IMG/VR virus record: IMGVR_UViG_3300033412_000048
Span: 1 to 32,688 of that record
Source of the DNA: a virus
Taxonomy: Duplodnaviria; Caudoviricetes
Strand: one strand, 5' to 3'
DNA length: 32,688 nucleotides
Translations under genes and position numbers: made by a program
Shown: in pieces, positions 2,998 through 30,482 of the stretch
How the letters are laid out: each line of letters opens with the position of its first letter
Numbering within the stretch: the stretch's first letter is position 1
Notes under the pieces: generated by a model
What the model saw: only the letters and a program-made list of their open reading frames with translations
Told to the model about the DNA's origin: nothing
Databases searched by the model: none

Positions 2998-5400
2998 TCA
3001 CCTCGTCCCGTATGACAGCTCGTTGGCCTGGTCGCTCATTTTCTTGTCGATGCGCACGTCGAGGATATCCGTGATCTCCCTCGTGCCCAGGTAGACCCGG
3101 ACGTTGGTCGCTTCGCCGTGCGAGGCCCGGCTGCCCAGCATGTCGAGCAGGCCGGTGCTCTTGGCGACGGCGGCCGCCTTGGCCGGGTCGCCCATCGGCA
3201 CGACCGCTTCAGGCCCGGCCTCACCGACGACGGCGAGGGTCGGGGCGGTGACCAGGCCGCCGGACGCCAGCAGGGGGATGTGCGGCAGGCCGATGTGCAC
3301 GGCGCTGGATACGCGGTCGATGCCGGAATTGAAGCCGGAGATGATCGAGTTGATGCCGGACTTCAGCCCGGACAGGATGTCGTGCCCGACGTTGCGCATG
3401 AACCCGGAGATGCGGCCGGGCAGGTCGCGCACGAAGCTGACGACGGCGTCCGCGCCTTCCCGCACTTCCCGTTTCGCCCAGTCCCATGCGCTGCGGAACG
3501 CCCCGCCGATGATGCCGGGGAGGCGGTTGACGAACCCGGCGATCTTGCCGGGGAGCTGGGTGAAGATGAAGATCACGGCGCTCACGCCCAGCTCAAGGGC
3601 GGTCTTGCCCAGCGAGAAGGCCAGGTTCCACAGGTCCACGAACAGGTGACCGATCGACTTGACCGCGTCCCAGATCATCCCGGGGGCTTTGACGAAGAAG
3701 GCGATGATCAGGCCGATGCCGACGCCGATGGCGAACCCGGCCGCGTTCAGGGCGTTGAGGAAGAGCTGGCCCAGCAGGGCGGGCAGGGCGCTCAGGGCCG
3801 CCCAGATCTTGCCGGGGATGCTGGCGAAGAAGCCGGGGAGGGTGACGGTAAACCAGTCGCCGATGCTCTTGCCGACCGAGACGATCCACTGCCAGATGCC
3901 CTGGAAGAATCCCTTGATCGCTTCCCAGGCGGACTTCAGCGCGGTGGTGACGGCCCCCCAGTTCTTATAGATCAGGTAGGCCCCGGCGGCGATGGCGGCG
4001 GCGGCGAGCACGATCCAGCCGACCGGGTTGAGGGCGTCCACGATCGCTTCGTAGACGGCCACGGCGATGAGGGCGGTGCGGTACGCCATCCACGCGGTTA
4101 CGGCGGCGGCCAGCAGGTCGGGATGCTTGGCGAGGATGTCGGCGACGGACACCAGGAACGGCGTGATCTTGACGAGCGCGTCGGTGAGGCCCCCGGCGAA
4201 GATGCTCACGAGCTGGCCGATCGCGGGCAGCAGCGGCGTAAGGACCTGCGCCATGGTGCTCAGCGCGGTGTTCAGCAGCATGAACAGGTCCGCCAGAGCC
4301 TCCTGGCCCTGGGCGCTCGCGAAGAATGCGGCGAGCTGGCCGACAAGGGCGCTGAGGAAGCCGAGAGCCTGCGCGCCGTCGGCCTGGAGGGCCGTGATCA
4401 GCGCCGTCACAAGATCAAAAACGTTGCCGAGAAAGCCCCCGAGCTGCCGGAGGATGACCAGAGCATCGTCGAAGAACTGGGCCAGCGCCCCCGAGGCGGC
4501 CGCCTCGTTGATGAACTGCGAGAACTGCACCAGCAGATTCGCGAAGCCCGTGGAGAGGGTGGCGAACAGGGGGCCGCCGACCGCGCCCAGCGTGATGAAC
4601 GCCCCCGTCAACTGGGCCAGGGCCGGGATGAACGGCTTGAGCGCCTCGTGTGCGGCCGTGAAGATCGCCCCGATGTCCGCCGACCGGTTGCCGAAGGTCC
4701 GCAGGACGTTGTCGCCGATCTTCCCGATGTCCACGGCCAGGTAGGTGAGGCCCTTGTGCAGGGTCGGCAGCAACTGCCGGGCCACCCGGGTCAGCGTGCC
4801 CTCAAGCTGGTTGAAGAACACTTGCTGGATGTCCTGCTGAAGCTGGCGGAAGGCGGGGTGAAGCCGCTGGATCTCCCGGACGAAGTCCTGGGCGCTGGGC
4901 GACAGCTTCTTCATCGCCTCGTTGAACTGCTCGGCCTTTGCCGGATCGAACGCGGTCGAGAGGGCGGCCCCCAGGCCGTGGGTCGCCAGGGCCAGCGCGC
5001 CGACCGCGCCGACCATGCCGAAGATGGCCACTGGCAGGGTGCCCGCGAGGGCGGTGACGGCCGGGGCGAGGGCTGCCACGAGCTCCACGGCGAGGCCGAT
5101 CAGGGTGGGCATCAGGAGGGCGGCGGCGACGGACAGGCCTTGGCTCAGACCCTTCCAGAGGGAGGTCCCGCCCTTCTTACCCTCCTTCTCCATATCGTTT
5201 TCGATCTTGGTGTCGACGCCCTTGGCCAGCTCATCCGCCGCCGACTCACCCGCCTGCCGCGCCGACTTGTCCAGCTCCTCGAACTCCAGACCCTTCGTCT
5301 GCTCGTCGAGGGCTTTCTTGATCTCCTGCCGCAACCCGGGCGTGAACTTCGACAGGTCAGCGAACACCTGCACGAACGCGCGTCCCAGAACACCGGCCAT
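2998..5400 (-). CDS. Tape measure protein
   Basis: 800 aa, Ala/Leu/Gly-rich and helical with periodic W/F; N-terminal GRAFVQVFAD; C-terminal LASGGLV..PTLAVVGEAGPEAVVP. Confidence 0.92.
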   Translation of the reverse strand: MAGVLGRAFVQVFADLSKFTPGLRQEIKKALDEQTKGLEFEELDKSARQAGESAADELAKGVDTKIENDMEKEGKKGGTSLWKGLSQGLSVAAALLMPTLIGLAVELVAALAPAVTALAGTLPVAIFGMVGAVGALALATHGLGAALSTAFDPAKAEQFNEAMKKLSPSAQDFVREIQRLHPAFRQLQQDIQQVFFNQLEGTLTRVARQLLPTLHKGLTYLAVDIGKIGDNVLRTFGNRSADIGAIFTAAHEALKPFIPALAQLTGAFITLGAVGGPLFATLSTGFANLLVQFSQFINEAAASGALAQFFDDALVILRQLGGFLGNVFDLVTALITALQADGAQALGFLSALVGQLAAFFASAQGQEALADLFMLLNTALSTMAQVLTPLLPAIGQLVSIFAGGLTDALVKITPFLVSVADILAKHPDLLAAAVTAWMAYRTALIAVAVYEAIVDALNPVGWIVLAAAAIAAGAYLIYKNWGAVTTALKSAWEAIKGFFQGIWQWIVSVGKSIGDWFTVTLPGFFASIPGKIWAALSALPALLGQLFLNALNAAGFAIGVGIGLIIAFFVKAPGMIWDAVKSIGHLFVDLWNLAFSLGKTALELGVSAVIFIFTQLPGKIAGFVNRLPGIIGGAFRSAWDWAKREVREGADAVVSFVRDLPGRISGFMRNVGHDILSGLKSGINSIISGFNSGIDRVSSAVHIGLPHIPLLASGGLVTAPTLAVVGEAGPEAVVPMGDPAKAAAVAKSTGLLDMLGSRASHGEATNVRVYLGTREITDILDVRIDKKMSDQANELSYGTR

Positions 5401-5403
5401 GGC

Positions 5404-5973
5404 TCACGATCCTACGGGTGTGGGTGGTTGCGCCTGGCCCATCAGGGCCGCAAACGCCGACTCGGCCGCGCGCTGGTCGTACAGGTCATCCGCCTTCACG
5501 CCTTCCACGCCGATCGGGGGCATTCGCAGATCGATGTCGAACCTGTTGCGCTCCTGCTCGTCCATCGTGCGCACGCACACCACGTAGATGGCGTTCAGCG
5601 CCGCCGCAAGGCTGACCCTGTCCAGGTCCACGCCAAGCCGGGTCAGTTCCCCCCCGATGATGTGCCACGACGCGGCAGACGAACGGATCAGCCGGTCCGC
5701 CTCCCACCAGGGACGTCCGGCCGCCTCGGCCAGCAACTCTCGGGACCGGGTCGCAAGCAGCTCGGCGGTAATCTCGCCGTCAAGCAGCATGTCCGCGATG
5801 CGCTCCTCCGCGCCCGCGCCCATCATCCCCGGAATGAGGGGCAGCGGTACGTCCTCGTCAAGGATCGCGAGGAACCAGTCGGCTGCTGGCCGGGGAGGAA
5901 CCGTGAAGGTCTCCCCGGCCAACTCAACGTCGAGCGCCCAGACCTTGAGTGCAGCGAGAGCGTCAGCGGGCAT
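5404..5973 (-). CDS. Tail assembly chaperone (pre-TMP)
   Basis: 189 aa immediately upstream of the tape measure gene; AGRPWWEADRL motif seen in actinophage pre-TMP chaperones. Confidence 0.65.
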   Translation of the reverse strand: MPADALAALKVWALDVELAGETFTVPPRPAADWFLAILDEDVPLPLIPGMMGAGAEERIADMLLDGEITAELLATRSRELLAEAAGRPWWEADRLIRSSAASWHIIGGELTRLGVDLDRVSLAAALNAIYVVCVRTMDEQERNRFDIDLRMPPIGVEGVKADDLYDQRAAESAFAALMGQAQPPTPVGS

Positions 5974-6346
5974 CGGACGGCAGCTCGTTGCAAACGTGAA
6001 CGGGAGATCCGAACACGCAGCCGTGGCTGCACTTTGGTGCTTCGGCCCACGTCACTCCAGCCGCCCTACGCCTCTGGTCCGCCGCGCCCTGCAACCGGCC
6101 AAGCTGGATACCCTCGCGGTACGCCCGTTTGGCCTTGACGTCGGCCCGCCAGAAGTGGAACGGGAGCCACGCCGCAAGGGCCACGTACACGCCGAGCTGG
6201 ATCGGCCAGGGCACGTACTGGGCGATGTATTCGGTCCAGGGGATGGTTCCGGCCGGATGGAACACCCCGGCGACGACCTCCATGACGATCGCGGCGAGGG
6301 TGAGCCCAAGGAACACGACAGTCCAGAGGATTCGCTTCGTCTTCAC
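5963..6346 (-). CDS. Two-TM membrane protein, hypothetical
   Basis: 127 aa with two hydrophobic segments; GTGA-coupled to the upstream gene. Confidence 0.65.
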   Translation of the reverse strand: MKTKRILWTVVFLGLTLAAIVMEVVAGVFHPAGTIPWTEYIAQYVPWPIQLGVYVALAAWLPFHFWRADVKAKRAYREGIQLGRLQGAADQRRRAAGVTWAEAPKCSHGCVFGSPVHVCNELPSDAR

Positions 6347-6702
6347 CTGCGCCTCCGCACGGGGGCAGCCTTCTTTGCTGCCGGGGCGGCCTGGTCGTTG
6401 AATTCCTTGGTGGCCTCGGTGATCACCGCGAAGACCTGCTCTGCGCTCACGTCCCCGCCGATCATGGCGTCGTCGAGCCAGTCCTTGTCGTCGTCGCTGA
6501 CGATCATCTGCTCGACGACCTTGCCGATGGTGCCGAGGTTGCGGACCATGCGGTCGCGCTGCTCAGCGGTCAACTCCTCAACGTTTTCGATCTTGGGCAG
6601 GCCTCGAAATGTTCGGGCCAGTACCACCAGCGCGCCATCAGTCGGCTTGCGCATCTCGACCTCACGGCCGCCGAGCGTGACCTTCACGGTCGCCTCAGGC
6701 AT
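6343..6702 (-). CDS. Tail assembly chaperone (~119 aa; MPEATVKVTLGGREVEMRKPTDG...)
   Basis: Strong RBS AGGAGGAG before ATG at 6702; position between the gp10-like gene and the tape measure gene. Confidence 0.65.
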   Translation of the reverse strand: MPEATVKVTLGGREVEMRKPTDGALVVLARTFRGLPKIENVEELTAEQRDRMVRNLGTIGKVVEQMIVSDDDKDWLDDAMIGGDVSAEQVFAVITEATKEFNDQAAPAAKKAAPVRRRR

Positions 6703-8810: not shown

Positions 8811-9503
8811 TCAGCTCGCGCAGCCGCACGAAGCGGCAGGCGGGGCCAGGTACGTCCACTGAAGGTGCCGGTGGGTGTCCGGCGGCAGGGCGATCAGCAG
8901 CTTCTCTGACGCGCCCGTCGTCATGTTGGCCAGCACGTTCTTGGGGCCGGTGCCCCAGTTGGTGCCCTGCTTGGTGCGGCCGTTCACCGTGAACGAGATC
9001 GCCCCGTTCTCGATCTTGAGGTCGCCGACGGTGCCCTCGACGATGTTCGGCAGCAGGAAATACCCGTACGGGACCAGCGAGAACGTGCCGACCGTGACGC
9101 AGGCGGGGCTGGCGATGTTGGTCCACACCTCCAGCCCGAAAGCGCCCGCCGCGTAGTTGCTCGTCCGGGTTTGGAAGCCGACGGCCGCCGGGGCGGCGGC
9201 GTCGTTGAGCACCAGCGTGGAGCCGGTGATCAAGCCGAACAACTCCGGGTCGACGTTGCAGAACGTGATCGTTACGTCGATCCATTTGAGCTGCTTCGGC
9301 GACTTCTCGTTGACGCACATCACGCCAGCCGCGTTCAGGACGACGATCTCCTGACCCGACTCGACCTGATCCTGCATCTCCACCGAGACGAAACCGGTCG
9401 AGACGGCCGACACGCAGGAACCCGTATTCGGGGTGCCACACGAGTTGACTGTCTGGACCCGCATGGTGGTGCCCTGGATGGGGGCCTGGCATACGGCCGT
9501 CAT
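8811..9503 (-). CDS. Major tail protein
   Basis: 230 aa; G..MRV....CG.P, NAAG.MCV, FCNVDP, F.LEVWT, YGYFLLP and WGTGP motifs; RBS AAGGAG. Confidence 0.85.
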   Translation of the reverse strand: MTAVCQAPIQGTTMRVQTVNSCGTPNTGSCVSAVSTGFVSVEMQDQVESGQEIVVLNAAGVMCVNEKSPKQLKWIDVTITFCNVDPELFGLITGSTLVLNDAAAPAAVGFQTRTSNYAAGAFGLEVWTNIASPACVTVGTFSLVPYGYFLLPNIVEGTVGDLKIENGAISFTVNGRTKQGTNWGTGPKNVLANMTTGASEKLLIALPPDTHRHLQWTYLAPPAASCGCAS

Positions 9504-9508: not shown

Positions 9509-9892
9509 CTACTCCTTGGCCTTGCCCTGCCGCGTACGCGACGCGGCGGGGGCGTTCTGTTCGGCGTCGTTGCTCTGCTGCTGGTTGAGACTGGCCTGCG
9601 CAGCGGCGGCGCGGGCCTGGTCCGCAGCATAGGCGTCTTCGCCGACGCTGGCGGATGGCAGGTCGGAGGCCTTCTCCCCATCGTTTTCGATCTTGTCGGG
9701 CCAGCGGTCGGCGCGCTCTCCGTCGAACGCGTCGGCCACATCCTGCGGAACCCGGAAGGACAGACCCGCATCGTGCTCGCCGCGCACGGCCTCAACGGTC
9801 CGGGCGTCGTAGCCCTTCTCGCTGGCCAGCTCCAGCAGCCGCGCGGCCACCTCGCCTTCCGGCTCGTGCCGGTTGGTGATTACTACTGCCAT
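9509..9892 (-). CDS. Hypothetical virion-module protein
   Basis: 127 aa; RBS AAAGGAG; lies between the capsid and tail genes. Confidence 0.7.
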   Translation of the reverse strand: MAVVITNRHEPEGEVAARLLELASEKGYDARTVEAVRGEHDAGLSFRVPQDVADAFDGERADRWPDKIENDGEKASDLPSASVGEDAYAADQARAAAAQASLNQQQSNDAEQNAPAASRTRQGKAKE

Positions 9893-12947: not shown

Positions 12948-13967
12948 ATGGAATCAGCTACGCCCGGCGGCGGAGAGCGGCCGCACTTCACCCCGGAAGC
13001 AGTGCAAGCGGCCGCCGAACTGGCCGCCGCCCTGAACCCCCGCGCCGGGGAGAAGGTGTGCATCGGCGTCCCGCACCTGAACGAGGCGGGCTGGAACTTC
13101 GTCGAGTCGGTCATCCGGGTGGCCGCCTACGACAAGGCTCACGGCAACCACCTGCTGCACAACTCCGGCCTGATGAACAACGGTGCGCTGGCGGCCGTGT
13201 GGGGCCGGTCCATGGAGCTCGCCCACGCACGCAACACCGCCACCGCCGCGTTCCTGTCCAGCGACTCGGACTGGCTGCTCTGGTGGGACTCGGACATCGG
13301 CGTCGAAGAGGACGCCCTGGAGAAGCTGATGTCGGTCGCCGACCCCGACACGGCACCCATCGTGGGCGGCCTCTGCTTCGTCGAGGGCGACTACACGCAC
13401 GACTTCCGGGGCGGCCTGCGTTCCAGCCTGGCACCCACCCTGTATGACTGGTCCTGGGTGGAACCCAAGTCGGGCATGCCGGGCTCCTACAAGCTGGCTT
13501 CGCGGCCGGACTGGCCCCAAGACGAGGTGACCCGGGTCGGTGCGACCGGCACCGGCTTCCTCCTGACCCACCGATCGGTGTACGAGAAGATCAGCGCCTG
13601 GTCTGTGGGCCAGGGCGCACCGGCGCACATCTGGTTTGAACGCATCCCGGGCCCGGACGGCGAGAAGTGCGGGGAGGATATCTCCTTCTGCCTGCGCGCC
13701 CACCAGGTCGACGTGCCTGTTCTGGTGCACACGGGTGTGACGACAACCCACCAGAAGACTGTCTGGTACGGGGTGCCGGAGTACCGGTCGAAGCCGTTCC
13801 CGCCGCCCAAGGCGAGCATCCTGCCGCTGCCGCCGAACCAGTGGCCGAAGCTGGTCATCAACCGCAACGCGGCGGCGGACGCGGCCAAGGACTCGCCGAT
13901 GACGGACCAGCGGGAGGGCGGCAAGATCGAAAACGAGGCGGCCCCGGACGGGTTTGCTAACGTCTGA
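12948..13967 (+). CDS. GT2-family glycosyltransferase (~339 aa)
   Basis: 3' part of ORF 10338..13967; RBS GGAGGAGG before ATG at 12948; ARN, WLLWWDSD (DxD), ATGTGFLL.HR.V and GEDISFC motifs. Confidence 0.85.
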   Translation: MESATPGGGERPHFTPEAVQAAAELAAALNPRAGEKVCIGVPHLNEAGWNFVESVIRVAAYDKAHGNHLLHNSGLMNNGALAAVWGRSMELAHARNTATAAFLSSDSDWLLWWDSDIGVEEDALEKLMSVADPDTAPIVGGLCFVEGDYTHDFRGGLRSSLAPTLYDWSWVEPKSGMPGSYKLASRPDWPQDEVTRVGATGTGFLLTHRSVYEKISAWSVGQGAPAHIWFERIPGPDGEKCGEDISFCLRAHQVDVPVLVHTGVTTTHQKTVWYGVPEYRSKPFPPPKASILPLPPNQWPKLVINRNAAADAAKDSPMTDQREGGKIENEAAPDGFANV

Positions 13968-16191: not shown

Positions 16192-18213
16192 TCACTCCTG
16201 CACGAGCGCCACCAGCAGCTCCGCGCGAGCCTCATCATAATCGGCCTGCGCGCCGCCGCCGGTGGCCGACGCGAGCAGCTCACGCCACTCCGCCGCCTGA
16301 GCTTCCCGCTGGGCGGCGGCCGCCTGCTCGGCGAGCATCCCCCGGGCGATGGCCCGGCCCAGCTCCTCCGTGTCGATTCCCGCCGCCGTGAGGCCCGTGT
16401 CGCCCTCGTCGACAACGCGGTGAAGCGCGCCAGCGGCGACGAGGCTCAGGACTTCCTCATCCTCAGGGAAGCCGCTCACGGTCGACGCGGTGAGCACGCG
16501 GGGGATGGGGAAGCCTGCCGTGTTGACGTGCAGGGCGGCCACCATCTCAAGGTTGCCGCCAACGCGCCGCCAGTCGCCGGACAGGGGGGCGGCGCGCATC
16601 TTGAAGACGGCGCTCTCGTCGGCGTCCGGGGCGAGCATGCCTGCCACCCAGATGCCGTGCTCGTCTTCGCCTGCGCGCACGTACGCGCCGGTGTTGGACG
16701 TGCGGTCGTAGTGTTCGGCGGCCGCCCGGTAGCCGAGGTTGGCGGCAGCGTGCCCGCCGCCGTACGTGAGGCGGCCCACGGCGACCCGAGAGCCGTCGTC
16801 GGTCTTCACCTCCCCGGTGTGGAAGTACGCGTAAGAGGTGGCCGTCTTGGGGGGCTTGACGCACGAGTCGCCGATGCCGACGTGGCAGGTGTCCCACACG
16901 GCGACGTGGCCGTAGACGCGGCCGTCGTCGCCGATGTGCAGCGGGGTGGGCCCGGTCAGCTTCGGGTCGTCGAACCACGCCTTGGGCGGGGCGACCGGGG
17001 CGGCCCCGGCCATGAGCGCGGCCATCTTCTCTCCGGCCTTCCAGTCGTCGGGGAGGCTGCCCTCGCAGCCCTTGCGCTTGGCGATGGCCGTGAGCCGCGC
17101 CTTGAACTTGCCGTAGGGGATTTTCGGGTTCGCCCGGCCGTACGAGGACACGGCGTCGGGGACGTCCCCGCACGAGGCGATGGGGAACCGGCGGCCTTCC
17201 GGGTCGACGAAGTCGGCGTCGTCGAGCTTCTTCCGCACGCCCGCCTTGGTGACGTCCGGCGCGGCGTAGGTGCCGCCGCCGAGGCCGCCGCCGCCCTGGC
17301 CCTGCTCGCCTTCATTGCCGGGCGGTTCGGGCTGGCCGTCCTTGCCCCGGTTCGGGATGCGCTTGCGGGCGAATTCCTCGAACTCGTCGTCGGTGAGCCA
17401 GATGCCGGAGCCGAAGAACTCCTCGTCGTCCTGATTGACCTTGGCGGCCTTGGGGTTGCGCTTCTTACGGTTGGGGATGCCGGTCCCGGTCGCTCCGTCG
17501 GACAGCACGTTGGCGAACTCGTCGCTCTCGTCCTCGAAGAGTTGCCCCAGGTCAGCTATCGACTGGAACACCTCGCGATCGTTTTCGATCTTGAATGCGC
17601 TGGACGTGGTCCCCTCGACATTCGGATCGGACGAGTCGATCGGAGTCAGCTTCGCGTGCCCGGACAGCTCCGCGAACGCGGGGATGTGCACCAGCGTGGC
17701 GGACGCCATCCGGCCGGACCGGATCATCTTCAGCCGGGGGCCGTCGTACGCCTCCTCGGCCATCACCGGATCGCCGCAGCCGCAGTCACCGCCGGTCTTC
17801 CCGGCGTGAGCCATCTTCGCGGCCTTCAGCTTCCCGGCCTGCTCTTTCTTCCATGCCGCGTACGCCTTGGGCTCCGGGACGTGCTCCATCTCCTGCATGT
17901 CCAGGTCGACGGACGGCCCGATGACCTTCTTTTCGGTGAACATCCGGGCGGCCATGGCGGCGTTGCGCACGTCTTCGGGCCAGGATTCGTCGTCGTAGAA
18001 CTCCCCCTGGCCGGGGAGCATCCCGTCCTTTTCCTTGCCGATCTTCGCGATGTGGCCGACGATCACAGCGTTCGCGTGGCCGCCCGAGTCTGCGGCCACG
18101 TACCGCAGCGGCAGCGGCAAGTCGCGGTGCGACAGCGCGCCTTCGTCGAACTGACGGCCGTCGCCGGTCGGCTTGCCGATGACGGCTAGCGGCATCTGCC
18201 AGGCGGTCCCCAT
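16192..18213 (-). CDS. Capsid maturation protease (multi-domain)
   Basis: 673 aa; TGDGR.F...LPLPL, GH..AV.VG.I, ATLV.IPAFAE, GRVYGH.A.W.TCH and SGDWR motifs; position upstream of the capsid gene. Confidence 0.8.
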   Translation of the reverse strand: MGTAWQMPLAVIGKPTGDGRQFDEGALSHRDLPLPLRYVAADSGGHANAVIVGHIAKIGKEKDGMLPGQGEFYDDESWPEDVRNAAMAARMFTEKKVIGPSVDLDMQEMEHVPEPKAYAAWKKEQAGKLKAAKMAHAGKTGGDCGCGDPVMAEEAYDGPRLKMIRSGRMASATLVHIPAFAELSGHAKLTPIDSSDPNVEGTTSSAFKIENDREVFQSIADLGQLFEDESDEFANVLSDGATGTGIPNRKKRNPKAAKVNQDDEEFFGSGIWLTDDEFEEFARKRIPNRGKDGQPEPPGNEGEQGQGGGGLGGGTYAAPDVTKAGVRKKLDDADFVDPEGRRFPIASCGDVPDAVSSYGRANPKIPYGKFKARLTAIAKRKGCEGSLPDDWKAGEKMAALMAGAAPVAPPKAWFDDPKLTGPTPLHIGDDGRVYGHVAVWDTCHVGIGDSCVKPPKTATSYAYFHTGEVKTDDGSRVAVGRLTYGGGHAAANLGYRAAAEHYDRTSNTGAYVRAGEDEHGIWVAGMLAPDADESAVFKMRAAPLSGDWRRVGGNLEMVAALHVNTAGFPIPRVLTASTVSGFPEDEEVLSLVAAGALHRVVDEGDTGLTAAGIDTEELGRAIARGMLAEQAAAAQREAQAAEWRELLASATGGGAQADYDEARAELLVALVQE

Positions 18214-20930: not shown

Positions 20931-20961
20931 ATAGTAGACACCACTTGACGGCGTTGTCAAG
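20931..20961 (-). promoter_or_regulatory. Promoter TTGACA-N18-TACTAT with palindrome CTTGAC-GGCGTT-GTCAAG
   Basis: Read directly; the TTGACA contains the TGA stop of the 1708-aa gene. Confidence 0.8.
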
Positions 20962-23900
20962 CCTTCTTTTTCTGGCCCAGCTTCCCTAACTTCGACGCGG
21001 CCCTCCACGTCGGAGCCGTCACGTCCGCGACCGTCTCCATCTCCGACTGGTTACGCTTACCGCTGTGCTTACCGTAGTCGGCGACCACCCGATAGCGCAG
21101 GCCCCGCTGAAGGATGATCTCGTTCTCCCCCGGATGCTGGCCGCCCTTCGCATTGATCCCCTTGATACCCAGCCCCTTCGGGATGATGATCCGCATGACC
21201 ACCCCGTTGTATCCGGCGAAGGTCTGGGCGGTGCTCAGCGCCCCCGAGGTCGACGAGTAGGAGCGTTGCGACCACTCCACCCCAGCAACGTTCACGTCGT
21301 TCCACTTGCCCGACTTGAAGACGGTTTCCGGGCTGGAGAATCCCCGATAGAGCACGACGTCTCCCTCCAGCGGGGGCGAGGCGGCGAACGCGTTGTCGAT
21401 GGAGGTGATCTGGCTGCTGCCGGTCTTCTTAGCGCCCGGCGGGAGGCTGTTCAGCTTGGTGTTGATGTTCCCGTAGGAGCTTCCGGTGTAGGCGTAGAGG
21501 GCGCTCTTGCCGGACGACGACGCGCCCTTCGACTCCATGTTGTTGATCGACCATTTGAACTCCTTCTGCGCTTCGAGCCCGAACTTCGTGTCGGCGTTGG
21601 CCAGGTGTCCCTGGAGTGCCGCGAGGTGTTCGGGGCTGCTCACGTACGCGCCGCTCTGCGCGGGCACCCATCCGTGCTGGTCACCCCCGGCGACCGTGTC
21701 GATGAAGTGGTAGCCGTTCGACGCGGCCGAGGCGGCGTTCGGGTTCTTCCCGATCTCGGTGGTGGGCGGCTTCGCGTGGACCTTCGGCGCGGGCATCGGC
21801 GGGAGCGTGGCCGACAGCTTGGCGGTTTTCGCGGCAGCCTTGTCGGAGGGCGTCTTGTGGGCGACGGCGAACGAGGGGCCGAGCTTGGCCACCAGGTACT
21901 GCTTAGCGCTGGCGATCTTGCCGTAGTTCGGCTGGCCGTACCCGGCCGTCTTGAAGTAGGCGGCCTCGGCGGCGGCCGTCTTGACCCCGGCCGCGTCAAC
22001 CTTCGGGATGGAACGCTTGCTCAGTCCAACGCTGGCGCGGATCGCGTCCAGTTTCTGCTGGGCGATCTTGTGCTGGGAGGCGAACTGCGATGCCAGGTCG
22101 TCCCCGTGGGATGCCGCCTTCAGCCAGGCGTCCTGCTCCGGCCCCTTCAACATGACCCCCGTGTCGGGGTCGGTGGGGACAGCCTCCTTGGCGGCCTTCT
22201 CCTCGGCAACCGACAGGGCGAGCACGCCCGCAAGCTTCTTCAGGTTGCCCAGGTCTTGCGTGAGGCTGGGATAGTCCGAATGGGACTTCATGTCTGCTTT
22301 TTGCGAGTATGACTTGACCCCGTACAGGACGGCCTTGCTGGCGTGCTTCCCCCAGGCATCGCTGTAGATCTCGGGGATGAGGCCCTTGTCGTAGTCGGTG
22401 AGCGTCACCGGACCGGCGGGCTTCAGGTATCCCTGGGCGGACTTGGCGGACGCGTGGAACTGGTCTTCGGCGGCGGTCAGCTTCGCCTTGGCGGCGTCCA
22501 GGTCGGCGTAGAGGTGCCCGTTGGCGGCCTTCAGCATCTCCGCTTGCTTGGCGATGACTTCCCGATCCTCGCTGGTGAGCGGGTTGCCGTCTTTGTCCTG
22601 GCCGATTTTCAGGGCGTCGTAGTGGTAGGCCTTCAGGTGGGTTTCGAGCTTGTTGACCCGGGCGGTCGCGTCGAGGATCTTCGCGTGAACGCTGGCGAGC
22701 TTGGCCAGTTTCGCGGCCACCATCTCGTCCGCCAGCACCGCAGGCGAGTAGTTCTTGGCGGCGGCGTCGGCAAGCGCCTGCCCCGCGCTGGCGATGTTCA
22801 GCACGGTTGCAGGGTCCAGGGTGGTGCTCGGTGTGGACGCCCCGTCTTCCAGGAGCTCCTTCGCCCGGTCCCAGATTTGCGCGTTGGACATCGCGGCCGG
22901 TTTGGGCGCGTTGGCTTGCTTCACGGCCGCATGCAGCTTGTCGGCAAGGTCGTTTTCGGCCTGCTTCGTCGCGGCCTTCAGCTCGTCGATGTCGGCGGTG
23001 CTGGACGGGGGCGTGTCGTGGGCGAGCAGGTATTGGTGGTACTGGATCAGCGAGGCTTTCTGGAGGGGCGTCAGGTCGCTGCTGCCGGATGCCACCTTCA
23101 TGTTGATCTTGTTGTACGCAGAGGCCTTGGCCTTGGCCACGGCGTTCGCGTGATACTGGGCGGTCGCCGCGTCGTTCAGGGCGGCGACCGCCTTGGCCAC
23201 CTCCGGCTTGTCCAGGACAGCGCTGGTGTAGAGCTTCGTCTTCTGCCCGACGAGCGCTTCCGCAGCGTCATCGGCAGCCATCGCGTGTTCGACGTTGTCC
23301 GGGTTGTCGAGCTCGTTGAGCCCGGCAGCGTCCTTGGCGGCCTTGAAGAGCATCACGGGGGTGGCGGCCTGGGCCATCTCCTTGGCCTGCTTCGCCGACA
23401 GGTCGGGGTCCTTGATGCCCTGGGCGAAGTTGATGCCGGGCTTGACCACGTCAGGCTTCGGAGCCTCGGCGGCCTTGGCCGCGCCGAACTTCTCCAGCAG
23501 CTTGTTGGTGGCGGTGATCTTCTTCGGGTCCAGGAACTTCGTGACGCCCTTCTTCAGGTCGGCAACGATCTTGGCCTGGATGTCCGGGGCGAGTGAGTCG
23601 AATTCGGGCTTGGACAGCTCCTGGTAGGCGACGAGCTGGTTCTTCGCCCAGGACGCGCCGGGGGCCACCCCCTGCGCCATGGCGACCGCGTTGGAGACGT
23701 GGACGGGGGGCGCGGTGGCCGGGGCCGGGGTGGTGGTGTTGGCAACGGTGACGTGCTCGCCCTTGCCGAGGTTGTACTTCTCGCCCGACGTGGTCGTTAC
23801 GACGTAGAAGCCGCCGGGGACCATGACGAGGGTGCCTTCGTGGCCGCTGCCGTCGAAGCCGACCTTGACTTTCTTGCCGCCCAGGATCAGGTCGGCGGAG

Positions 23901-26083
23901 CCATCCTTTTTGATCTTGGCGGCGACGTTGACCGGCGTCATGACTGTCGTGTCGGCGTTGATCCCCGCGCCCTTGTTCTCGACCGGCTCGGCGAGGGGCG
24001 GCACGTCCAGGGTCGCGGGAGCGGCAGGCGCGGCCGGAGTCGCCTTGGGCGTGTCGTACTGGGGGTGCACGACCTTGGTGACGTTGGAGTGCTCGCCGAA
24101 GATGTTCTTCGACTCGACGGTGGTCTTCTCGGGGATGAGCGTCTGGACGGTGGGCTTGACCGGCTTGTCCTTGGCGAACTGCGGCACCCACTTATCGATC
24201 TTGTTCTGGTCGAGTGCAGGCAGCTCGATGTTGCGGCGCTTCATCCACGCCGACACCGGCGTGTACGCCTTGCCCGACTCGTCGATGTACCCCTGGTGCA
24301 ACTGCTGGTCGGCGGCGGCGGACGCAATCGCATCCTTGACGATGGCAGTCTTCGTGCCGTCGGGCAGCGCCTTCCACTCTTCGGCGTTGAGCTTCTGGTA
24401 CGTCTTGAAACGTTCGGCGAACGACGTCTGGAGGGCGATGATCTTCGGCGGGCTGACGAAGGTGCCCGCCATGGCGGTGGCGTCACTCATCGCGGGCGTG
24501 TAGTTCTTCGCGCTCAGCGGCTCGCCGGGCTTCAGCGGGGTGTGGTGGGCCGCAACGGCCGGGGCCGGGACGGCCTCCTGCATCTCCTGAACTTGCGGAG
24601 GTGCGGCCTTCTCCGCGACCTTCTTCGCGGCGGCTTCCTTGGCGGCCTTCTCGATGCCCGCCTTCACGTTCTCCGGCTTGGACGCCTCGTGATGGGCGAG
24701 CATCTTCGCCACCAGCGGCGGCAGGCCCGGCTTACCTTCGGCGATGTGGTCGGCGATCTGGTGGTTGAACTCCGTGATGCCGACGTCGTTCTGCCCGTGG
24801 CCGAGGCCGGGCATCTTGTCCTGGGCGGCGACCTTGAGCGCGGCCTGGGCCAGCGCGTTGACGGCGTTCTTGAACGGTCCAGCGTCCTTGAGGTCCCCCT
24901 GGGCCTTCATCTTGTCGAAGACTTCGACCAGCTTGCCGAGCACTCCTTCAGGCATCGACTTGACGCCGGGGATGGCGTTGGAGAGCGCGACGATGGCGGC
25001 TACCTGCCCGGCGGAGGTGGGATTGCCCGGCTCGTGCGCCTCCTGGACCTTGGGCGGCGTCGCCTTGGCCTTGTCCAGGATCTCGGCGATTTTCTTCTCG
25101 GCCTCGGCTTTGTGCGCGGGGCCGATCTTGTTGACCGGCTTGGCGGCCTGCCCGAGGGTGACCTTGCCGGGGGCGGCGAGAGGGGCGGCCGCCTTGGCGA
25201 TGGCGGCCTGCTCCTTCTGGAAGTCGGCGTTGGTGGCCTGGGCCTTCTCGACGGCGTCCGGCTTGGCGATGGTGAGCTTGGCCAGCAGCTCGTCAGCCTT
25301 CTTCTGCTGCGGCCCGAACCCATCGATTTTGACCTTGGCCAGCTCGCCACGGATGATCGACTGATCAGCTTCGGACAGGCCAGCCCACTGCTCCGGCGTG
25401 ATCGCGGCGGCCTTGTCCAGCTTGTACTGGGGGGTGACCTTCTCCTGGGCGATGATGAAGGCGATGCCCTTCGAGGCGAGCGTCGGCTTCTTCCCCTTCG
25501 GCCCCTTCTCCACCGGCCCCACCGGCTTGACGGCCTGCCCCAGCGTCACCTTCCCGGGCGTCTGCACGTGCACGCCTGCCGCGTCGGAGACGGCCTGCCC
25601 GGCGGCGTGCGCCTCACCGGTCGCCTTGTTCGCCGTCTGCCCCGCCTGCGGGTGCGGCTTGGCCACGATCGGCGTGAGCAGCTTCTTCGGGATCGGCTTG
25701 CCCTGAGCCTTCAGCGCCTCGATTTTCTTGATCCGGGCGGCGTTGGCCTTCTCGACCTTGGCGGCCTCGATGCTGTGCCACGCGCCGGGGGAGACCTTGA
25801 AGAGGGTTCCCTTCCACCCTTTGCAGGGGCCGGGGTGCAGCGGGTTGAGGCAGGCGGTCAGGGAGCACGTGTCGTGGGCGTCGTCGTCTTGGTAGATGGC
25901 GGCCAGGATTGTCTGTGCGAGGGTTTCCGGGTCGCCGAGGCCAGCCGGGAATGGTCCGGCGGCGGCGATCAGGGAGCAGATCTGCTGGACGTCTTCCAGC
26001 CCGCTCATGATGCTGAAGGTCTGGGGTGAGGCGTTTGCGTGCTCAACCGAGAACTGGATCTTGAGCAGGTCTTTCAGCGCCAT
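20957..26083 (-). CDS. Giant Ala/Lys-rich protein with an N-terminal Cys/His tag and a C-terminal VIP2/C3-type ADP-ribosyltransferase domain
   Basis: 1708 aa; ALYAYTGSSYGNINTKL, VVLYRG, SYSSTS and GENEIILQRG give the R-STS-ExE signature. Confidence 0.85.
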   Translation of the reverse strand: MALKDLLKIQFSVEHANASPQTFSIMSGLEDVQQICSLIAAAGPFPAGLGDPETLAQTILAAIYQDDDAHDTCSLTACLNPLHPGPCKGWKGTLFKVSPGAWHSIEAAKVEKANAARIKKIEALKAQGKPIPKKLLTPIVAKPHPQAGQTANKATGEAHAAGQAVSDAAGVHVQTPGKVTLGQAVKPVGPVEKGPKGKKPTLASKGIAFIIAQEKVTPQYKLDKAAAITPEQWAGLSEADQSIIRGELAKVKIDGFGPQQKKADELLAKLTIAKPDAVEKAQATNADFQKEQAAIAKAAAPLAAPGKVTLGQAAKPVNKIGPAHKAEAEKKIAEILDKAKATPPKVQEAHEPGNPTSAGQVAAIVALSNAIPGVKSMPEGVLGKLVEVFDKMKAQGDLKDAGPFKNAVNALAQAALKVAAQDKMPGLGHGQNDVGITEFNHQIADHIAEGKPGLPPLVAKMLAHHEASKPENVKAGIEKAAKEAAAKKVAEKAAPPQVQEMQEAVPAPAVAAHHTPLKPGEPLSAKNYTPAMSDATAMAGTFVSPPKIIALQTSFAERFKTYQKLNAEEWKALPDGTKTAIVKDAIASAAADQQLHQGYIDESGKAYTPVSAWMKRRNIELPALDQNKIDKWVPQFAKDKPVKPTVQTLIPEKTTVESKNIFGEHSNVTKVVHPQYDTPKATPAAPAAPATLDVPPLAEPVENKGAGINADTTVMTPVNVAAKIKKDGSADLILGGKKVKVGFDGSGHEGTLVMVPGGFYVVTTTSGEKYNLGKGEHVTVANTTTPAPATAPPVHVSNAVAMAQGVAPGASWAKNQLVAYQELSKPEFDSLAPDIQAKIVADLKKGVTKFLDPKKITATNKLLEKFGAAKAAEAPKPDVVKPGINFAQGIKDPDLSAKQAKEMAQAATPVMLFKAAKDAAGLNELDNPDNVEHAMAADDAAEALVGQKTKLYTSAVLDKPEVAKAVAALNDAATAQYHANAVAKAKASAYNKINMKVASGSSDLTPLQKASLIQYHQYLLAHDTPPSSTADIDELKAATKQAENDLADKLHAAVKQANAPKPAAMSNAQIWDRAKELLEDGASTPSTTLDPATVLNIASAGQALADAAAKNYSPAVLADEMVAAKLAKLASVHAKILDATARVNKLETHLKAYHYDALKIGQDKDGNPLTSEDREVIAKQAEMLKAANGHLYADLDAAKAKLTAAEDQFHASAKSAQGYLKPAGPVTLTDYDKGLIPEIYSDAWGKHASKAVLYGVKSYSQKADMKSHSDYPSLTQDLGNLKKLAGVLALSVAEEKAAKEAVPTDPDTGVMLKGPEQDAWLKAASHGDDLASQFASQHKIAQQKLDAIRASVGLSKRSIPKVDAAGVKTAAAEAAYFKTAGYGQPNYGKIASAKQYLVAKLGPSFAVAHKTPSDKAAAKTAKLSATLPPMPAPKVHAKPPTTEIGKNPNAASAASNGYHFIDTVAGGDQHGWVPAQSGAYVSSPEHLAALQGHLANADTKFGLEAQKEFKWSINNMESKGASSSGKSALYAYTGSSYGNINTKLNSLPPGAKKTGSSQITSIDNAFAASPPLEGDVVLYRGFSSPETVFKSGKWNDVNVAGVEWSQRSYSSTSGALSTAQTFAGYNGVVMRIIIPKGLGIKGINAKGGQHPGENEIILQRGLRYRVVADYGKHSGKRNQSEMETVADVTAPTWRAASKLGKLGQKKKA
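25814..25880. repeat. 67-bp direct repeat copy 1 (encodes AHDTCSLTACLNPLHPGPCKGW on the minus strand)
   Basis: 64/67 nt identical to 28057-28123 by manual comparison. Confidence 0.9.
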
Positions 26084-26119
26084 GAGCGCATCCTAGCCGA
26101 TCGTTTTTGATCTTCAGCC

Positions 26120-26836: not shown

Positions 26837-28152
26837 GCCTTACCCGCCTCCTTCAGGATCTTCTTCTCACGCGCTTCCCGCTTCGCCTTGGCGACTGCCG
26901 CCTTGGCCTTGTGGTAGGCGGCCCGCTGCTGGGGGCTCATCTTCGCCAGCTTCGCCTTCTCGGCCCGGCGCTCCAGGATCCGCTGGGCGGCCTTACGGAC
27001 GCTCTCCTGGTGCCGCTTAGCCGACCGGTCGATGGTGTCCTGTTCGCGGGTGTCGCGTTCCCCGGTCCGCTTGGCCTGCTCGTTGCTGCGCGCGGCATCC
27101 TTCAGGGTCTGCTGGTGGGGGGCGAGCGCCTTGCGGTATCCGGCGACGGCCCGGCGCGCGGCGGCGGCCAGCTTCGGGTTGCCCGGGTTCTGCGCGGCGA
27201 TCTGCTCGGCGCGGGCGATGGCGTCGGAGAGGCCTTTGACGGCGGTCTGCGCCACCTGGGCGGGTGTTTGCTTGGTGGCGTCCTGCGCGCCCGGCTCGGC
27301 CTGGCCGCGCTTCTGCCCCTTGCACAGGCCCGGCTTGTGGGTCTGCATGCAGAACTCGCCAGTCTGGCAGTCGGCAGCGAGGGTGAGCCCTGCGGTGACG
27401 GAACCGCGATGCTTCTGGTTCTTGTCGCCCAGGTCGACTTGCTTGGCGCGGCCCTTGTCGCCGGGGACCACTTCCAGGGTGATGTGCCGGAACTTCCCCT
27501 TCGGGGTGACGATGAATCCGTTGTCCTTGACGACGCGGTAGTGCGCGCCCCGGTCGAGCAGGATTTCCTTCTCGTCGCCCCATTGGCCGGGCGGTACGCG
27601 GATGGCTCCCATCCCGGCGGGGACGGTGATGTCGGCGATGAGGGGCTGCTTGCCGCTGCTGGTGGTGTGGAAGTGCTTGAGGATGAGGCTGAGGTCGGTG
27701 CCGGTGGACCCGAACGCGTGGTCGGTGTATTCGGCCCCGGTCAGGTCGATGCTGGTGTCTTTGCCGCCGAACGCGGATGGGCTGACCGCGCGTTGCACGG
27801 TGATGGGGTGGGTGAGTTTGGACGCGGCCATGGCTTTGTCCATGGCCGCGATCTCCGCGACGATGCGGGGGTCGTTGGAGCCGTCGCCTTTGCTGGCGCG
27901 CAGCGACCGGTTGATAGGGCCGGAGCCGTTGACGTAGGAGAGCAGGGCCTTCTTCGTGGTGCCCGCGCCGCGCACGGTCTTGGCCTTGTTGTAGGCCCCG
28001 ATGCCGCGCTTGGCACGCCGGGAGACCCGGTCGAATGCTTCCTCGGGGGTGCCGCGCCACCCTTTGCAGGGGCCGGGGTGCAGGGGGTTGAGGCAGGCGG
28101 TCAGGGAGCACGCCTCGTGGGCGGTCTGGGCGGCTTCCCTGAGCGTTGTCAC
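26833..28152 (-). CDS. ADP-ribosyltransferase (VIP2/C3-type) with two Cys/His tags and a basic helical C-terminus
   Basis: 439 aa; ALLSYVNGSGPINRSLR, ITVQRA, AFGSTG and DEKEILLDRG motifs. Confidence 0.82.
   Translation of the reverse strand: MTTLREAAQTAHEACSLTACLNPLHPGPCKGWRGTPEEAFDRVSRRAKRGIGAYNKAKTVRGAGTTKKALLSYVNGSGPINRSLRASKGDGSNDPRIVAEIAAMDKAMAASKLTHPITVQRAVSPSAFGGKDTSIDLTGAEYTDHAFGSTGTDLSLILKHFHTTSSGKQPLIADITVPAGMGAIRVPPGQWGDEKEILLDRGAHYRVVKDNGFIVTPKGKFRHITLEVVPGDKGRAKQVDLGDKNQKHRGSVTAGLTLAADCQTGEFCMQTHKPGLCKGQKRGQAEPGAQDATKQTPAQVAQTAVKGLSDAIARAEQIAAQNPGNPKLAAAARRAVAGYRKALAPHQQTLKDAARSNEQAKRTGERDTREQDTIDRSAKRHQESVRKAAQRILERRAEKAKLAKMSPQQRAAYHKAKAAVAKAKREAREKKILKEAGKA
28057..28123. repeat. 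67-bp direct repeat copy 2 (encodes AHEACSLTACLNPLHPGPCKGW on the minus strand)
   Basis: 64/67 nt identical to 25814-25880. Confidence 0.9.
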
Positions 28153-28400
28153 CGCTTCTCCTCGTCCTCGGTGGCGGTGTCATCTCGGACCATACCGGTT
28201 GGGGCTGAGGTTTTGTCGTCCCACTTCCGGACGGTGGTGGGTGCCGGTTTGGGGTCGGGCCACTTGGTGACGTCGAATTCGACGTCGTCGTCGGCGAACG
28301 GCTCGTACGTGGCCTTCTTAGCATCGTTTTTGATCTTGCTGGGGGGCTTCACGTCCGAGATGAGGCCGTCCTCGGAATCCCAGTGCTTGCCGACAGTCAC
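28149..28400 (-). CDS. Small charged protein, candidate immunity/partner of the MuF-ART
   Basis: 83 aa, Asp/Lys-rich; GTGA-coupled on both sides between two ART genes. Confidence 0.65.
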   Translation of the reverse strand: MTVGKHWDSEDGLISDVKPPSKIKNDAKKATYEPFADDDVEFDVTKWPDPKPAPTTVRKWDDKTSAPTGMVRDDTATEDEEKR

Positions 28401-29914
28401 GCGACTACCTCCACGTCCAGCCGACGCCTGCCCTTCGCGTCCACGCCGCCGTCGAACACCACGCGGTAGCGAACGTCGCGGCCGAGAAGCAGCTCATCCT
28501 CGTGGTTGTTGGGGTTCTCGGGGTGACGCATGTCTACCCCGCCGACCTTGACGTTCTTGGGGATCAGTACGCGCATCACCATGCCGCCCCTCTTCGCGAA
28601 CTCTTCCGCCGTGACGGGATCGGCGCTGGTCGAGCTGTACGCCTTTTGCGTCCACTCCAGGCCGGTCACGTCGTCGTCGTTCCAAGCATCACCGAACGCG
28701 GACGCCGGATCGCTCATGCCCCGGAAGACGACGACGTCCCTGTCGCGAGTGCCTTTCTTCAGCGCCTCGTCGAGGTACGTCTTCATGGTCCGGTCGACGC
28801 CCCCGAGCTTCTCCCCTTTGCCGACGGCAGTGTTCAGGGTTTTGTACCCGACCCCGGAGTAGTGGAGGAGGGCTGCGCGCTGGGCCTTGTCTTTCTTCTC
28901 GCTGAGGCTGCCGAACTGCGCCAGGGCTTCGTTTCCCTTCGCGGCCGAGTCGAATGCGGCGGCAGCCCGGCGCTTTTCGGCCGCCGGGTCGAGCTCGTCT
29001 TTCTTGCCGATCAGCGACTTGAGGAGACCGCCGCCGCCCTTCGTCCACTTGCCCTCATGGTCCCGCTTCTCCATGGGGTTGAATCCGAAGCTGCTGGCCT
29101 TCAGGTACTGCCGGTTCTCCATGCTGGTCGGCTTGTCGGCCTCTTCGAGCAGCGAGATGCACCGGCAGTTGACGACTTCCTTGGCGGGGGCGGTCGGGTC
29201 GTGGGGGTACATCATCTGGAAGCCGCCGACGATGAACGGGGAGCCGAAGGGGGCGGCCTGCCCGTCGGCTTCGACGTGGTCCGGCCGGGTGCGGGCGTCT
29301 TCGGTGGCGAGCCACCGTTTCACCCAGACGGTGCCGGGGTCGTTCTCGACGATCATGGAGAAGGCGTCGTAGGTGCCCCCGTTGTAGGCCCCGACGACTT
29401 CGGTGCGGGCGACGGTGCGGGCGCGGTTCTTCCAGGTGGCCATTCCGGTGTCGTCGAACAGTTGTTCGACTTGGGCGGTGACGTCGGGGATGCTCGCCCC
29501 GTTGGTAGTTGCCGAGTCAATTATCTTCGAGACCACGCCGAACACCTCGTCGGGAACCGCCGCCAGCCGGTTCTCCCGCTGGGCGATCCAGTTCCGCACG
29601 AACGGGCGCGACTCGAACGCCGTGCCGTCGGCGAACAGGTTCTTGTACGGGGCGGCCAGCACCTCACGCGCCACCTCGGCGGTGTACTCCGCCGTGAGGG
29701 CCGTCCACTTCGGCGTCTGCGAGAACACGGCGAGCGGGTCCGGCACCAGCCCCAGGGACGCCACCCCGCCGGTGAACATGGCGGCCCGGACGGCGGCCAG
29801 CCACTCGACCATCATCTCCATGTACGCCTCGTAGAGGGGCGGCTCGTACTGGGCGAAGACTTCCAGGGCGGCCTGCTTCTGGGCGGCGGCGTCCGGCACG
29901 TTCGGCTGGGTCAC
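28397..29914 (-). CDS. MuF (SPP1 gp7-like) minor head protein fused to a C-terminal ADP-ribosyltransferase
   Basis: RARTVARTE, KRWLATEDARTRPDH, F.VGG..MMYPHDP and VVNCRC (MuF); VVVFRG, AYSSTS and HEDELLLGRD (ART); likely GTG start at 29914 after RBS GGAGAGG, overlapping the upstream stop. Confidence 0.9.
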   Translation of the reverse strand: MTQPNVPDAAAQKQAALEVFAQYEPPLYEAYMEMMVEWLAAVRAAMFTGGVASLGLVPDPLAVFSQTPKWTALTAEYTAEVAREVLAAPYKNLFADGTAFESRPFVRNWIAQRENRLAAVPDEVFGVVSKIIDSATTNGASIPDVTAQVEQLFDDTGMATWKNRARTVARTEVVGAYNGGTYDAFSMIVENDPGTVWVKRWLATEDARTRPDHVEADGQAAPFGSPFIVGGFQMMYPHDPTAPAKEVVNCRCISLLEEADKPTSMENRQYLKASSFGFNPMEKRDHEGKWTKGGGGLLKSLIGKKDELDPAAEKRRAAAAFDSAAKGNEALAQFGSLSEKKDKAQRAALLHYSGVGYKTLNTAVGKGEKLGGVDRTMKTYLDEALKKGTRDRDVVVFRGMSDPASAFGDAWNDDDVTGLEWTQKAYSSTSADPVTAEEFAKRGGMVMRVLIPKNVKVGGVDMRHPENPNNHEDELLLGRDVRYRVVFDGGVDAKGRRRLDVEVVA

Positions 29915-30261
29915 GGCCTCTCCCGGTGGTGGCACGAGCAGGTGCAGGGGGACGCGCAGGTCTTGCATTGGGCGGGCCTGCGCGGGTGCCCGGGGGCCAG
30001 CTCCTGGGCGGAGCAGTCGGCGTGCCGCTCGTGGCGGCAGTGGGTGGACCAGTATTTGTGCTCGCCGCTGTCGAAGACGGTGTCGGTTTTTCCCCGGTCG
30101 AGGGGCCCGGCTTCCGCGCGCAGGAGCTGGATGCCGTAGATGATGCCGCTGGTCTCGTCGGGGGTGAGGTCGGCGGGCTGGCCCAGTTCGTGCTTGGCCT
30201 TCAGCTTGGTGAGGGCGCTGGCGAAGTTGGCGAACTTGCGGATCTGCTCGGGGGTCATCAC
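29911..30261 (-). CDS. Cys/His-rich hypothetical protein
   Basis: 116 aa; YWSTHCRHERHADC...CKTCASPCTCSCHH; coupled to both neighbours. Confidence 0.7.
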   Translation of the reverse strand: MMTPEQIRKFANFASALTKLKAKHELGQPADLTPDETSGIIYGIQLLRAEAGPLDRGKTDTVFDSGEHKYWSTHCRHERHADCSAQELAPGHPRRPAQCKTCASPCTCSCHHRERP

Positions 30262-30482
30262 TTCGCCCTGTTCGCGTCGTTTTCGTCGGGTTCTGCGGGG
30301 TGTTTCCCCGCGTTTTCTGGCACTCGTACCGGCCAGTAACTAGCTGAGCGGCTAGCCCACGCGGGCCGGGCGGCGACAGCCGACCGGTAGACCCGGGACG
30401 CCCCGGCGGGGCCCGGCACGTACGGGATGACGGAACGCGAAACGTACACGGTGCCGCGCATCTCCGCGTCGTTTTCGATCAT
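30258..30482 (-). CDS. Hypothetical protein
   Basis: 74 aa; ATGA overlap with the portal stop. Confidence 0.5.
   Translation of the reverse strand: MIENDAEMRGTVYVSRSVIPYVPGPAGASRVYRSAVAARPAWASRSASYWPVRVPENAGKHPAEPDENDANRAK

Follow-up and report, generated by a model that had tools for sequence, protein, structure and literature searches.

What holds one AT-rich word in place across the virion genes of a GC-rich phage? The question is raised by IMG/VR record IMGVR_UViG_3300033412_000048 (Duplodnaviria; Caudoviricetes), whose positions 1 to 32,688, the whole stretch of 32,688 nucleotides (nt) analyzed here, are called the window below. It has 65–71% GC and is the virion arm of a tailed phage, with genes for portal, MuF, protease, a capsid protein of 626 amino acids (aa) and tail proteins. 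An earlier inspection of the letters alone (the sequence-only reading) had noted a dispersed 13-mer in these genes and proposed a genome-wide protein-binding site. We find that an uncultured actinobacterial phage family carries one 16-letter word, even inside coding genes and over predicted late-gene promoters, and we predict that this word is almost certainly a docking site for a protein.

The analysis used 17 near-complete records of the clade and the L027 fragment, with genes called by a purpose-made codon scorer; one of the records, the 58.6-kb G001, contains nearly the same DNA as the window plus the rest of the genome. A matrix iterated over the clade genomes showed that the element is real but has 16 base pairs (bp) instead of 13: (C/G)A(A/T)GATC(A/G)AAAACGAT, with the matrix consensus (C/G)A(A/T)GATC(G/A)AAAAC(G/A)AT, a weak G(A/T)(T/A)G tail near +19 to +22 and an information content of 28 bits versus genome composition. 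The partial palindrome described previously is confined to the ATCR-N4-CGAT part; nothing on the right mirrors the left flank, which hardly varies, and the site as a whole is asymmetric. All 11 copies listed earlier (eight exact and three with one mismatch) were recovered at the same coordinates and on the same strands. The window has 13 motif matches with at most two mismatches versus a mean of 0.50 in 100 dinucleotide shuffles, none of which reached 13, and motif words rank top among its over-represented 9- to 12-mers.

At a threshold of at least 20 bits, the 17 genomes contain 303 sites, 13–23 in each and about 18 per genome, at a mean spacing of 3.2 kb; since the records are related (G005 and G006 closely), these counts are not independent events. 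Reversed genomes, taken as a control, never reach 13 bits on the matrix. The majority of the sites, 197 (65%), are genic, 157 being sense and 40 antisense, while 106 are non-coding or at gene edges: 42 at edges and 64 intergenic, a class that may include missed genes because of the purpose-made gene caller.

Nearly all sense sites are in one frame, reading K/M-I-E/K-N, and the KIEND, KIENV, KIENE and KIKND readings reported earlier in unrelated proteins were seen directly. Two proteomes contain the pattern [KM]I[EK]N 10 and 12 times, versus 0.16 and 0.15 times after shuffling. Within it, Glu is encoded by GAA in 119 of 123 cases (21% genome-wide) and Lys by AAA in 19 of 19 (7% genome-wide). 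An antisense copy in the tape measure gene with the codons GTT TTT GAT CTT, also described before, is indeed present, and 12 of 12 tape-measure VFDL peptides use GTT TT(T/C) GAT CTT, although the genome-wide usage of these codons is only 6% for GTT, 11% for GAT and 4% for CTT. In six genomes, synonymous resampling gave 3.5–5.8 sites versus 10–14 observed, and the observed number was never reached in 60 rounds each; the enrichment thus holds over a codon-aware null. Selection acts on the DNA word itself, including inside genes. A protein-level KIEN motif is ruled out by the forced rare codons and by the antisense and non-coding copies. An RNA hairpin was judged unlikely from the sequence, the stem having 3–4 bp and being broken when R is A, and some copies being antisense.

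In the window, the antisense tape-measure copy (4410..4425, + strand, NVFDL, 30.0 bits) has the same aligned position in 13 of 17 genomes. Sense copies on the minus strand are found in the same gene (5194..5209, KIEND, 31.8 bits; same column in 11/17), in gene 6343-6765, a likely tail assembly chaperone by its position (6580..6595, 29.7 bits; 16/17 genomes), in gene 9509-9892 (9680..9695, 31.8 bits; 7 genomes), in the capsid maturation protease gene (17578..17593, 31.8 bits; 17/17 genomes, 16 of them at one column) and in an 83-aa gene, 28149-28400 (28323..28338, KIKND, 32.2 bits). A weaker minus-strand copy in the major tail gene (9003..9018, KIENG, 17.9 bits) occupies a position that has a site of at least 15 bits in 17/17 genomes. 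On the plus strand, a sense copy lies near the end of the plus-strand glycosyltransferase-like gene 12948-13967 (13922..13937, 28.9 bits). The 1708-aa ADP-ribosyltransferase-domain gene contains a minus-strand site (23903..23918, KIKKD, 27.5 bits) and a weak one (25322..25337, 18.8 bits) absent from the earlier list. Another minus-strand site (30468..30483, 29.0 bits) contains the portal stop codon, and a portal-edge copy is present in 7/17 genomes. Across the clade, positions are fixed in the terminase, protease and major tail genes and shift in others, with five positions in the glycosyltransferase-like gene and three in gene 9509-9892. The sequence-only reading had also remarked on a spacing of about 2.2 kb, which is true of four copies (2197, 2223 and 2145 bp apart) but not in general: the weaker copy at 25322 falls between two of the four, and only 19 of 303 gaps across the 17 genomes are 2.0–2.5 kb long. 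A 2.2-kb periodicity was therefore rejected, the spacing being local only.

Among 76 capsid-gene loci, the closest 31 (60–100% identity) all have a copy with at most one mismatch, the most distant of them, L027 (60%), having a single degenerate copy, and none of the 45 loci at 31–41% has any. Together with the codon-aware tests, the presence of 13–23 copies in each of 17 relatives supports the predicted genome-wide protein-binding site under selection at the DNA level. By comparison, the 14-mer core occurs 0–2 times per genome in 401 Actinomycetes (a tally including the unpublished G095, which has no copy), and 44 of these genomes have any; with at most two copies in each, a host chromosome-organising site was rejected. 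Of 20 stretches around host-genome matches, one is a clade phage contig and no common context was seen around the others. Separately, several Actinomycetes genomes (L375, L376, L378 and L389) have the core 14-mer in a non-phage context that is homologous among them (GCGGTCAAGATC.AAAACGGA). No report of this site was found in the literature covered, subscription journals and unread supplements being outside that coverage, and a search with four 11-mers of the site gave no phage paper among the matches listed.

The orientation of the sites bears on one of the functions suggested earlier, a stoperator, that is, a polar roadblock by which an immunity repressor silences a prophage. The sites are asymmetric, 13–16 bp long, number about 20 per genome and in some cases lie on promoters, as described for cluster A phages (PMC9283540), and 157 of 197 genic copies face in the direction of the gene. 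However, this genic bias follows coding ease in the one favoured frame, and copies free of coding show none: between co-directional genes 31 are sense and 25 antisense, and at gene edges 22 and 20. Site orientation is free wherever coding imposes no constraint. The sites are not stoperators in their layout, because the non-coding copies are not oriented with transcription; moreover, 65% lie inside genes and none at early promoters. Nor were the companions of lysogeny found: tyrosine integrase (PF00589) and ParA (PF13614) were detected in 0 of 17 records and serine recombinase (PF07508) in 0 of 5, and general Pfam and PHROG scans of the G001 proteins named no repressor that has a helix-turn-helix (HTH) and a Stoperator domain, no dedicated search for it having been made. 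A scan of 185,579 species genomes gave only a clade contig in a metagenome-assembled genome (MAG; Umezawaea bin) and distant relatives, and no clade prophage. Given the missing integrase, ParA and serine recombinase and this MAG contig, the clade phages are likely lytic, and we regard the stoperator explanation as extremely improbable. As a lead to the host, lysin matches reach 29–37% only.

The sites avoid each other, with two gaps below 500 bp versus 42.5 expected; gap variation is below the random mean in 17/17 genomes, reaching significance at 0.05 in only 5 taken singly. They also leave out the early block, which is site-free over 6.6–8.7 kb in 17/17 genomes and encodes ParB-like, DUF6551, winged-helix, O-like initiator and ERF proteins.

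Two arrangements connect the word with putative promoters. In each of the 17 genomes, exactly one site is followed by 3–4 nt, a TANNNT box and, 6–7 nt on, an ATG, an arrangement expected 0.04 times by chance among 303 sites; the 17 cases represent one inherited arrangement, not 17 events. Where inspected, the downstream gene is a long ADP-ribosyltransferase-type gene. In the window this is the minus-strand copy at 26100..26115, previously noted as intergenic; it is non-coding and occupies the spacer of a putative leaderless promoter, at about -32 to -17. Four nt further on is the predicted -10 box TAGGAT (26090..26095, - strand), 6 nt before the ATG at 26083 of the 1708-aa gene (20957..26083, - strand), the predicted promoter target, which has a C-terminal ADP-ribosyltransferase domain (Pfam PF03496, E=3.7e-16; PHROG 802). 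In 13 of 17 genomes, a reverse-facing site at the terminase start (near 36771 in G001) contains a -10-like TAG(T/C)TT 6 nt ahead of the ATG; G018 retains the TAGCTT box without the site. Judged by what is generally known of actinobacterial promoters, both boxes look like leaderless housekeeping-sigma promoters. A metagenome scan also showed the full site, 4 nt, TAGCCT, 6 nt and an ATG in L500, L510 and L512 (301-326, - strand; one sequence), in the same register as at the phage promoter, before a gene for a bacterial-type DeoR regulator. A DeoR operator was rejected: none of 21 homologue loci has the site upstream, the best scoring 6.3 bits.

An orientation-free, spaced, non-early site in register with a -10 box suits a factor that is loaded at multiple places and has its effect over some range, and a lytic phage without a recognised sigma factor needs a late switch. 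We therefore consider control of late genes the probable, though far from assured, role of the docking site. Four core proteins are candidates for binding DNA: a 296-aa ParB-like protein, its DUF6551 neighbour, a 123-aa winged-helix protein and the terminase small subunit. The genes of the first two adjoin in the early block and both are present in 17/17 genomes; all 27 loci found with the ParB-like protein have 2–9 sites each. This protein matches ParB_N (PF02195) in 48 of 92 members and has PDB profile matches. Its structural model (predicted local distance difference test score 91) has a helical middle and a C-terminal hairpin, and Foldseek matches it to pNOB8 ParB, ParB, Noc and KorB over about 230 columns with template modelling scores of 0.2–0.4. 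Invariant in 92 sequences are R20, G53, R55 and R56 of the nucleotide pocket (GxxR being G53/R55/R56) and G137, R139, G142 and R169 around the putative HTH. The DUF6551 neighbour has a ParB/Noc fold, and other phage DUF6551 proteins bind cytidine triphosphate (CTP) or adenosine triphosphate (PMC12704722). KorB slides up to 1.5 kb to repress (PMC11790492), a reach of about half the mean site spacing, and BisD slides and activates at a distance (PMC12409273).

From the orientation freedom, the spacing, the -10 register and these precedents we favour, tentatively and as a possibility short of probable, a ParB-type clamp operator for late-gene control bound by the ParB/KorB-like HTH protein. Across the virion, lysis and accessory regions, selection keeps one site per 3 kb or so. 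The protein, encoded in the site-free early block outside the window and likely made early, would bind the sites via its putative HTH; the prediction is that it then closes into a CTP clamp and slides. Because a clamp would slide, intragenic sites of either orientation could still reach promoters. The copy at -32 to -17 may stand in for the -35 contact, with activation the likely effect, and the copy over the terminase -10 box may gate that promoter. The near-absence of the site from host chromosomes also speaks for this proposal. The asymmetry of the site could reflect a clamp of two proteins or a pair of phage and host proteins.

Several observations weigh against this proposal. Known sites of the ParB family are palindromes bound by homodimers, whereas the 16-bp site is clearly asymmetric. 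The ParB-like/DUF6551 pair is also present in phiGD20-1 (E=1.6e-25), without this site or a comparable scattered word, and six distant loci with strong matches to the pair (L420-422, L424-426; also L438) lack the site and any like word as well. The recognition helix varies, with R in 41, K in 19, S in 14 and H in 5 of 92 sequences at position 168, while the site does not, and no co-variation of helix variants with site variants was seen. The promoter region of the pair has no site, nor does a third conserved leaderless promoter (cluster 24, 16 genomes). Capsid genes, the portal body and minor tail genes have none either, with gaps up to 10 kb; since large late regions are free of sites, the tiling of late DNA is loose, and gaps as large as that of the early block are also found over tail genes. 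Two other lineages have scattered palindromes but no such ParB-like protein. Finally, binding and expression are here predictions from sequence, and the Gbn-like half of the site, considered below, speaks for a host factor.

In phiGD20-1 (L394-L395, 45664-51775), the pair is placed right after cro, and repeated TAGACACCGC...AATTGAGGTATG blocks, probably promoters, were observed. As for the two lineages with palindromes, G037:C1 (L278-L281), as well as G033 and G034, has TTCCCAC(C/G)GTGGGAA 28 times in 62.6 kb, concentrated in the non-structural arm; of ParB-type genes, these records contain just one for a short ParB N-domain, next to a likely terminase small subunit. G031:C1 (L294-L297) has a palindrome around TTTATCCGGATAAA in 15 copies in 64 kb, mostly in one arm. 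As both are capsid-relative lineages with palindromes of their own, scattered words recur in this phage group.

The main rival to the ParB-like protein is the host nucleoid protein Gbn (GATCWT), for which the word would be a site of optimised or composite type. On entry of the phage DNA, its late region would become covered with Gbn, and late promoters would be kept low, either by Gbn alone or together with a phage protein that recognises the AAAACGAT half. The reverse strand of the site reads GATC-W-T-(G/C), the published consensus including the G/C flank (PMC9239103); A(A/T)GATC is present in 282 of 303 sites versus 11% of other GATC, and (C/G)A(A/T)GATC in 280. A host factor would explain a site frozen across the clade. 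Gbn-type genes (PF19575) occur in 46 of 61 genomes (the unpublished G467 included) from the order to which the MAG belongs, two clade contigs having been assigned to this MAG by binning, and one PF19575 protein matches Gbn by size and isoelectric point; however, the MAG itself gave no Gbn match, and no homologue is encoded by the clade phages. GATC upstream of gbn genes scores slightly above control GATC on the phage matrix (p=0.001), but the best gbn-promoter site has 13 bits, less than a control at 15, and the comparison is confounded by intergenic A+T bias. Gbn does not require the A-tract, the most invariant part of the site: it is missing from the consensus and from the 'strong' test site of the paper (PMC9239103). 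The match may have arisen by convergence, GATC being a frequent core, and we regard the Gbn explanation, including the silencing it implies, as unlikely.

The winged-helix protein, a coiled-coil plus MerR/excisionase-type protein heading the early operon, might instead bind head-to-tail on an imperfect 10-bp repeat with GAT at positions 1–3 and 11–13. Head-to-tail binding of the BldC/Xis type suits an asymmetric site. The protein is present in 17/17 genomes with an invariant helix R-x-T-P-Q-Q-W-x-Q-R, and the Atlas classes it as HTH_17/MerR-like. On the other hand, G025, a complete outgroup phage, encodes a homologue (TPQQWRQR, E=1.4e-16) but lacks any site of at least 12 bits, the gene's own promoter has no site, and no solved relative was found, which makes this operator quite unlikely. 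As the ParB pair and the winged-helix protein both occur without the site, no candidate binder is supported by its distribution outside the clade. Upstream of the winged-helix gene (G001 41340-41544), 17/17 genomes retain TGTCAA(C), and a TA(G/T/A)GCT box and a GCT(G/A)ACG-like word lie nearer the gene; these are likely divergent early promoters with a separate operator.

Sites of 28 bits suffice to distinguish phage from host DNA, and being rare in hosts, scattered, spaced apart and in both orientations they might serve DNA handling, as recognition sites of the terminase small subunit in packaging, as protective self marks or as nick sites; genes for both the terminase small subunit and an HNH endonuclease belong to the core. 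Yet the -10 register in 17/17 genomes and the site-free early block would be left unexplained, the small-subunit helix varies too, and nothing found supports the packaging and protective options put forward earlier. DNA handling is thus rather improbable, and all other explanations together have little probability. One bolder combination, which we rate as very unlikely, would join Gbn to the ParB clamp: about 18 composite sites would load a sliding CTP clamp of two different ParB-fold proteins, with Gbn reading the other half. Gbn would silence the late region on entry, and the clamp would later take over and switch on the virion genes, and the sites would matter enough for capsid and tail protein sequences to be rewritten.

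Among the other genes of the window, the 626-aa capsid protein has its best named matches in Actinoplanes phiAsp2 and in Microbacterium and Gordonia 'hexamer' capsid proteins (about 36–40%). Three ADP-ribosyltransferase-domain genes and an ADP-ribosylglycohydrolase were found (window 18839-20020, 20957-26083, 26833-28152 and 28397-29968), with a NADAR gene at G001 46809-47348 and, by inspection of the sequence, a macrodomain-like gene in 7 relatives. This suggests an ADP-ribosylation conflict with host defences. A 77-bp repeat (91%; 25804-25880 and 28047-28123) encodes CSLTACLNPLHPGPCKGW near the start of two transferase-domain proteins and is possibly a virion-targeting module. The 3' end of the long transferase gene is variable: 20957-26083 of the window differs at its end from G001 17164-22372 (about 82 bp offset), where 1692 aa and a short frame are encoded, and a contig in run X1 also departs from the window at 21058. 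Three imperfect 109-bp repeats (15377-15945) occupy a gene-poor stretch between two small genes.

Scattered conserved words are known in several actinophage groups. The present case is a clean example of a DNA code overriding protein sequence: aligned sites number in the hundreds, selection is proven within genes, two promoters serve as anchors, a control region is free of sites, and three candidate binders can be named. Binding by the ParB-like protein would mean that CTP-clamp gene control, so far of plasmids and integrative and conjugative elements (ICEs), also extends to the late switch of a phage in which neither a sigma factor nor a late activator is recognised. Should Gbn be the binder, the phage would be using a host protein in a way on which our literature search found no paper.

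How does the word compare with known systems? Like it, the operators and stoperators of cluster A (L5 type) are asymmetric 13-mers, more than 20 across an actinophage genome and some on promoters (PMC9283540); these stoperators are intergenic, oriented with transcription and serve lysogeny, whereas here 65% of the copies lie within genes, those outside coding sequence point in both directions, early promoters carry no site and a search for integrase gave none. The 17-bp repeat TGTTCGGNNNCCGAACA of cluster O is likewise a scattered conserved word in actinophages, with about a third of the copies in genes and no meaningful orientation; it is palindromic and densest in the non-structural arm (PMC4351075), while our site is asymmetric, without dyad symmetry. 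Repeats of Microbacterium clusters EC, EF, EG and EI are scattered, conserved and start-associated (PMC7302621). Compared with the cluster O and Microbacterium repeats, the present site has most of its copies in virion genes, changes the peptides encoded there and keeps out of the early block; unlike the start-associated sequence (SAS), which keeps to one place shortly ahead of start codons and to a single orientation, it is 65% genic and takes both orientations at starts. For the phiC31 repeats, the literature search gave no relevant paper. In phage P1, late promoters have a -22 box, and C1 sites are asymmetric. The P1 late promoters (Lpa) place a phage box just upstream of the -10 hexamer, and the C1 operators are scattered (PMC8198154); here only one copy per genome has this geometry, and most have no promoter. 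Gbn (SCO1839) binds thousands of 6-bp chromosomal sites, GATCWT, equal to one half of the word including the W and the G/C flank (PMC9239103); in the phage site an invariant A-tract and CGAT come on top, and chromosomes are almost devoid of it. KorB-OB of RK2 (PMC11790492) and BisD-bisS of ICEclc (PMC12409273) have a ParB-CTPase + HTH protein on a mobile element of roughly 60 kb, with sites near and far from promoters and control at a distance, as proposed here, although our phages have no ParA/IncC partner, the site is asymmetric, binding is predicted and BisD has only two loading sites. In its mode of action the site resembles the scattered operators found in cluster A, in cluster O and on RK2, but departs from stoperators in its free orientation and from palindromic operators in its asymmetry.

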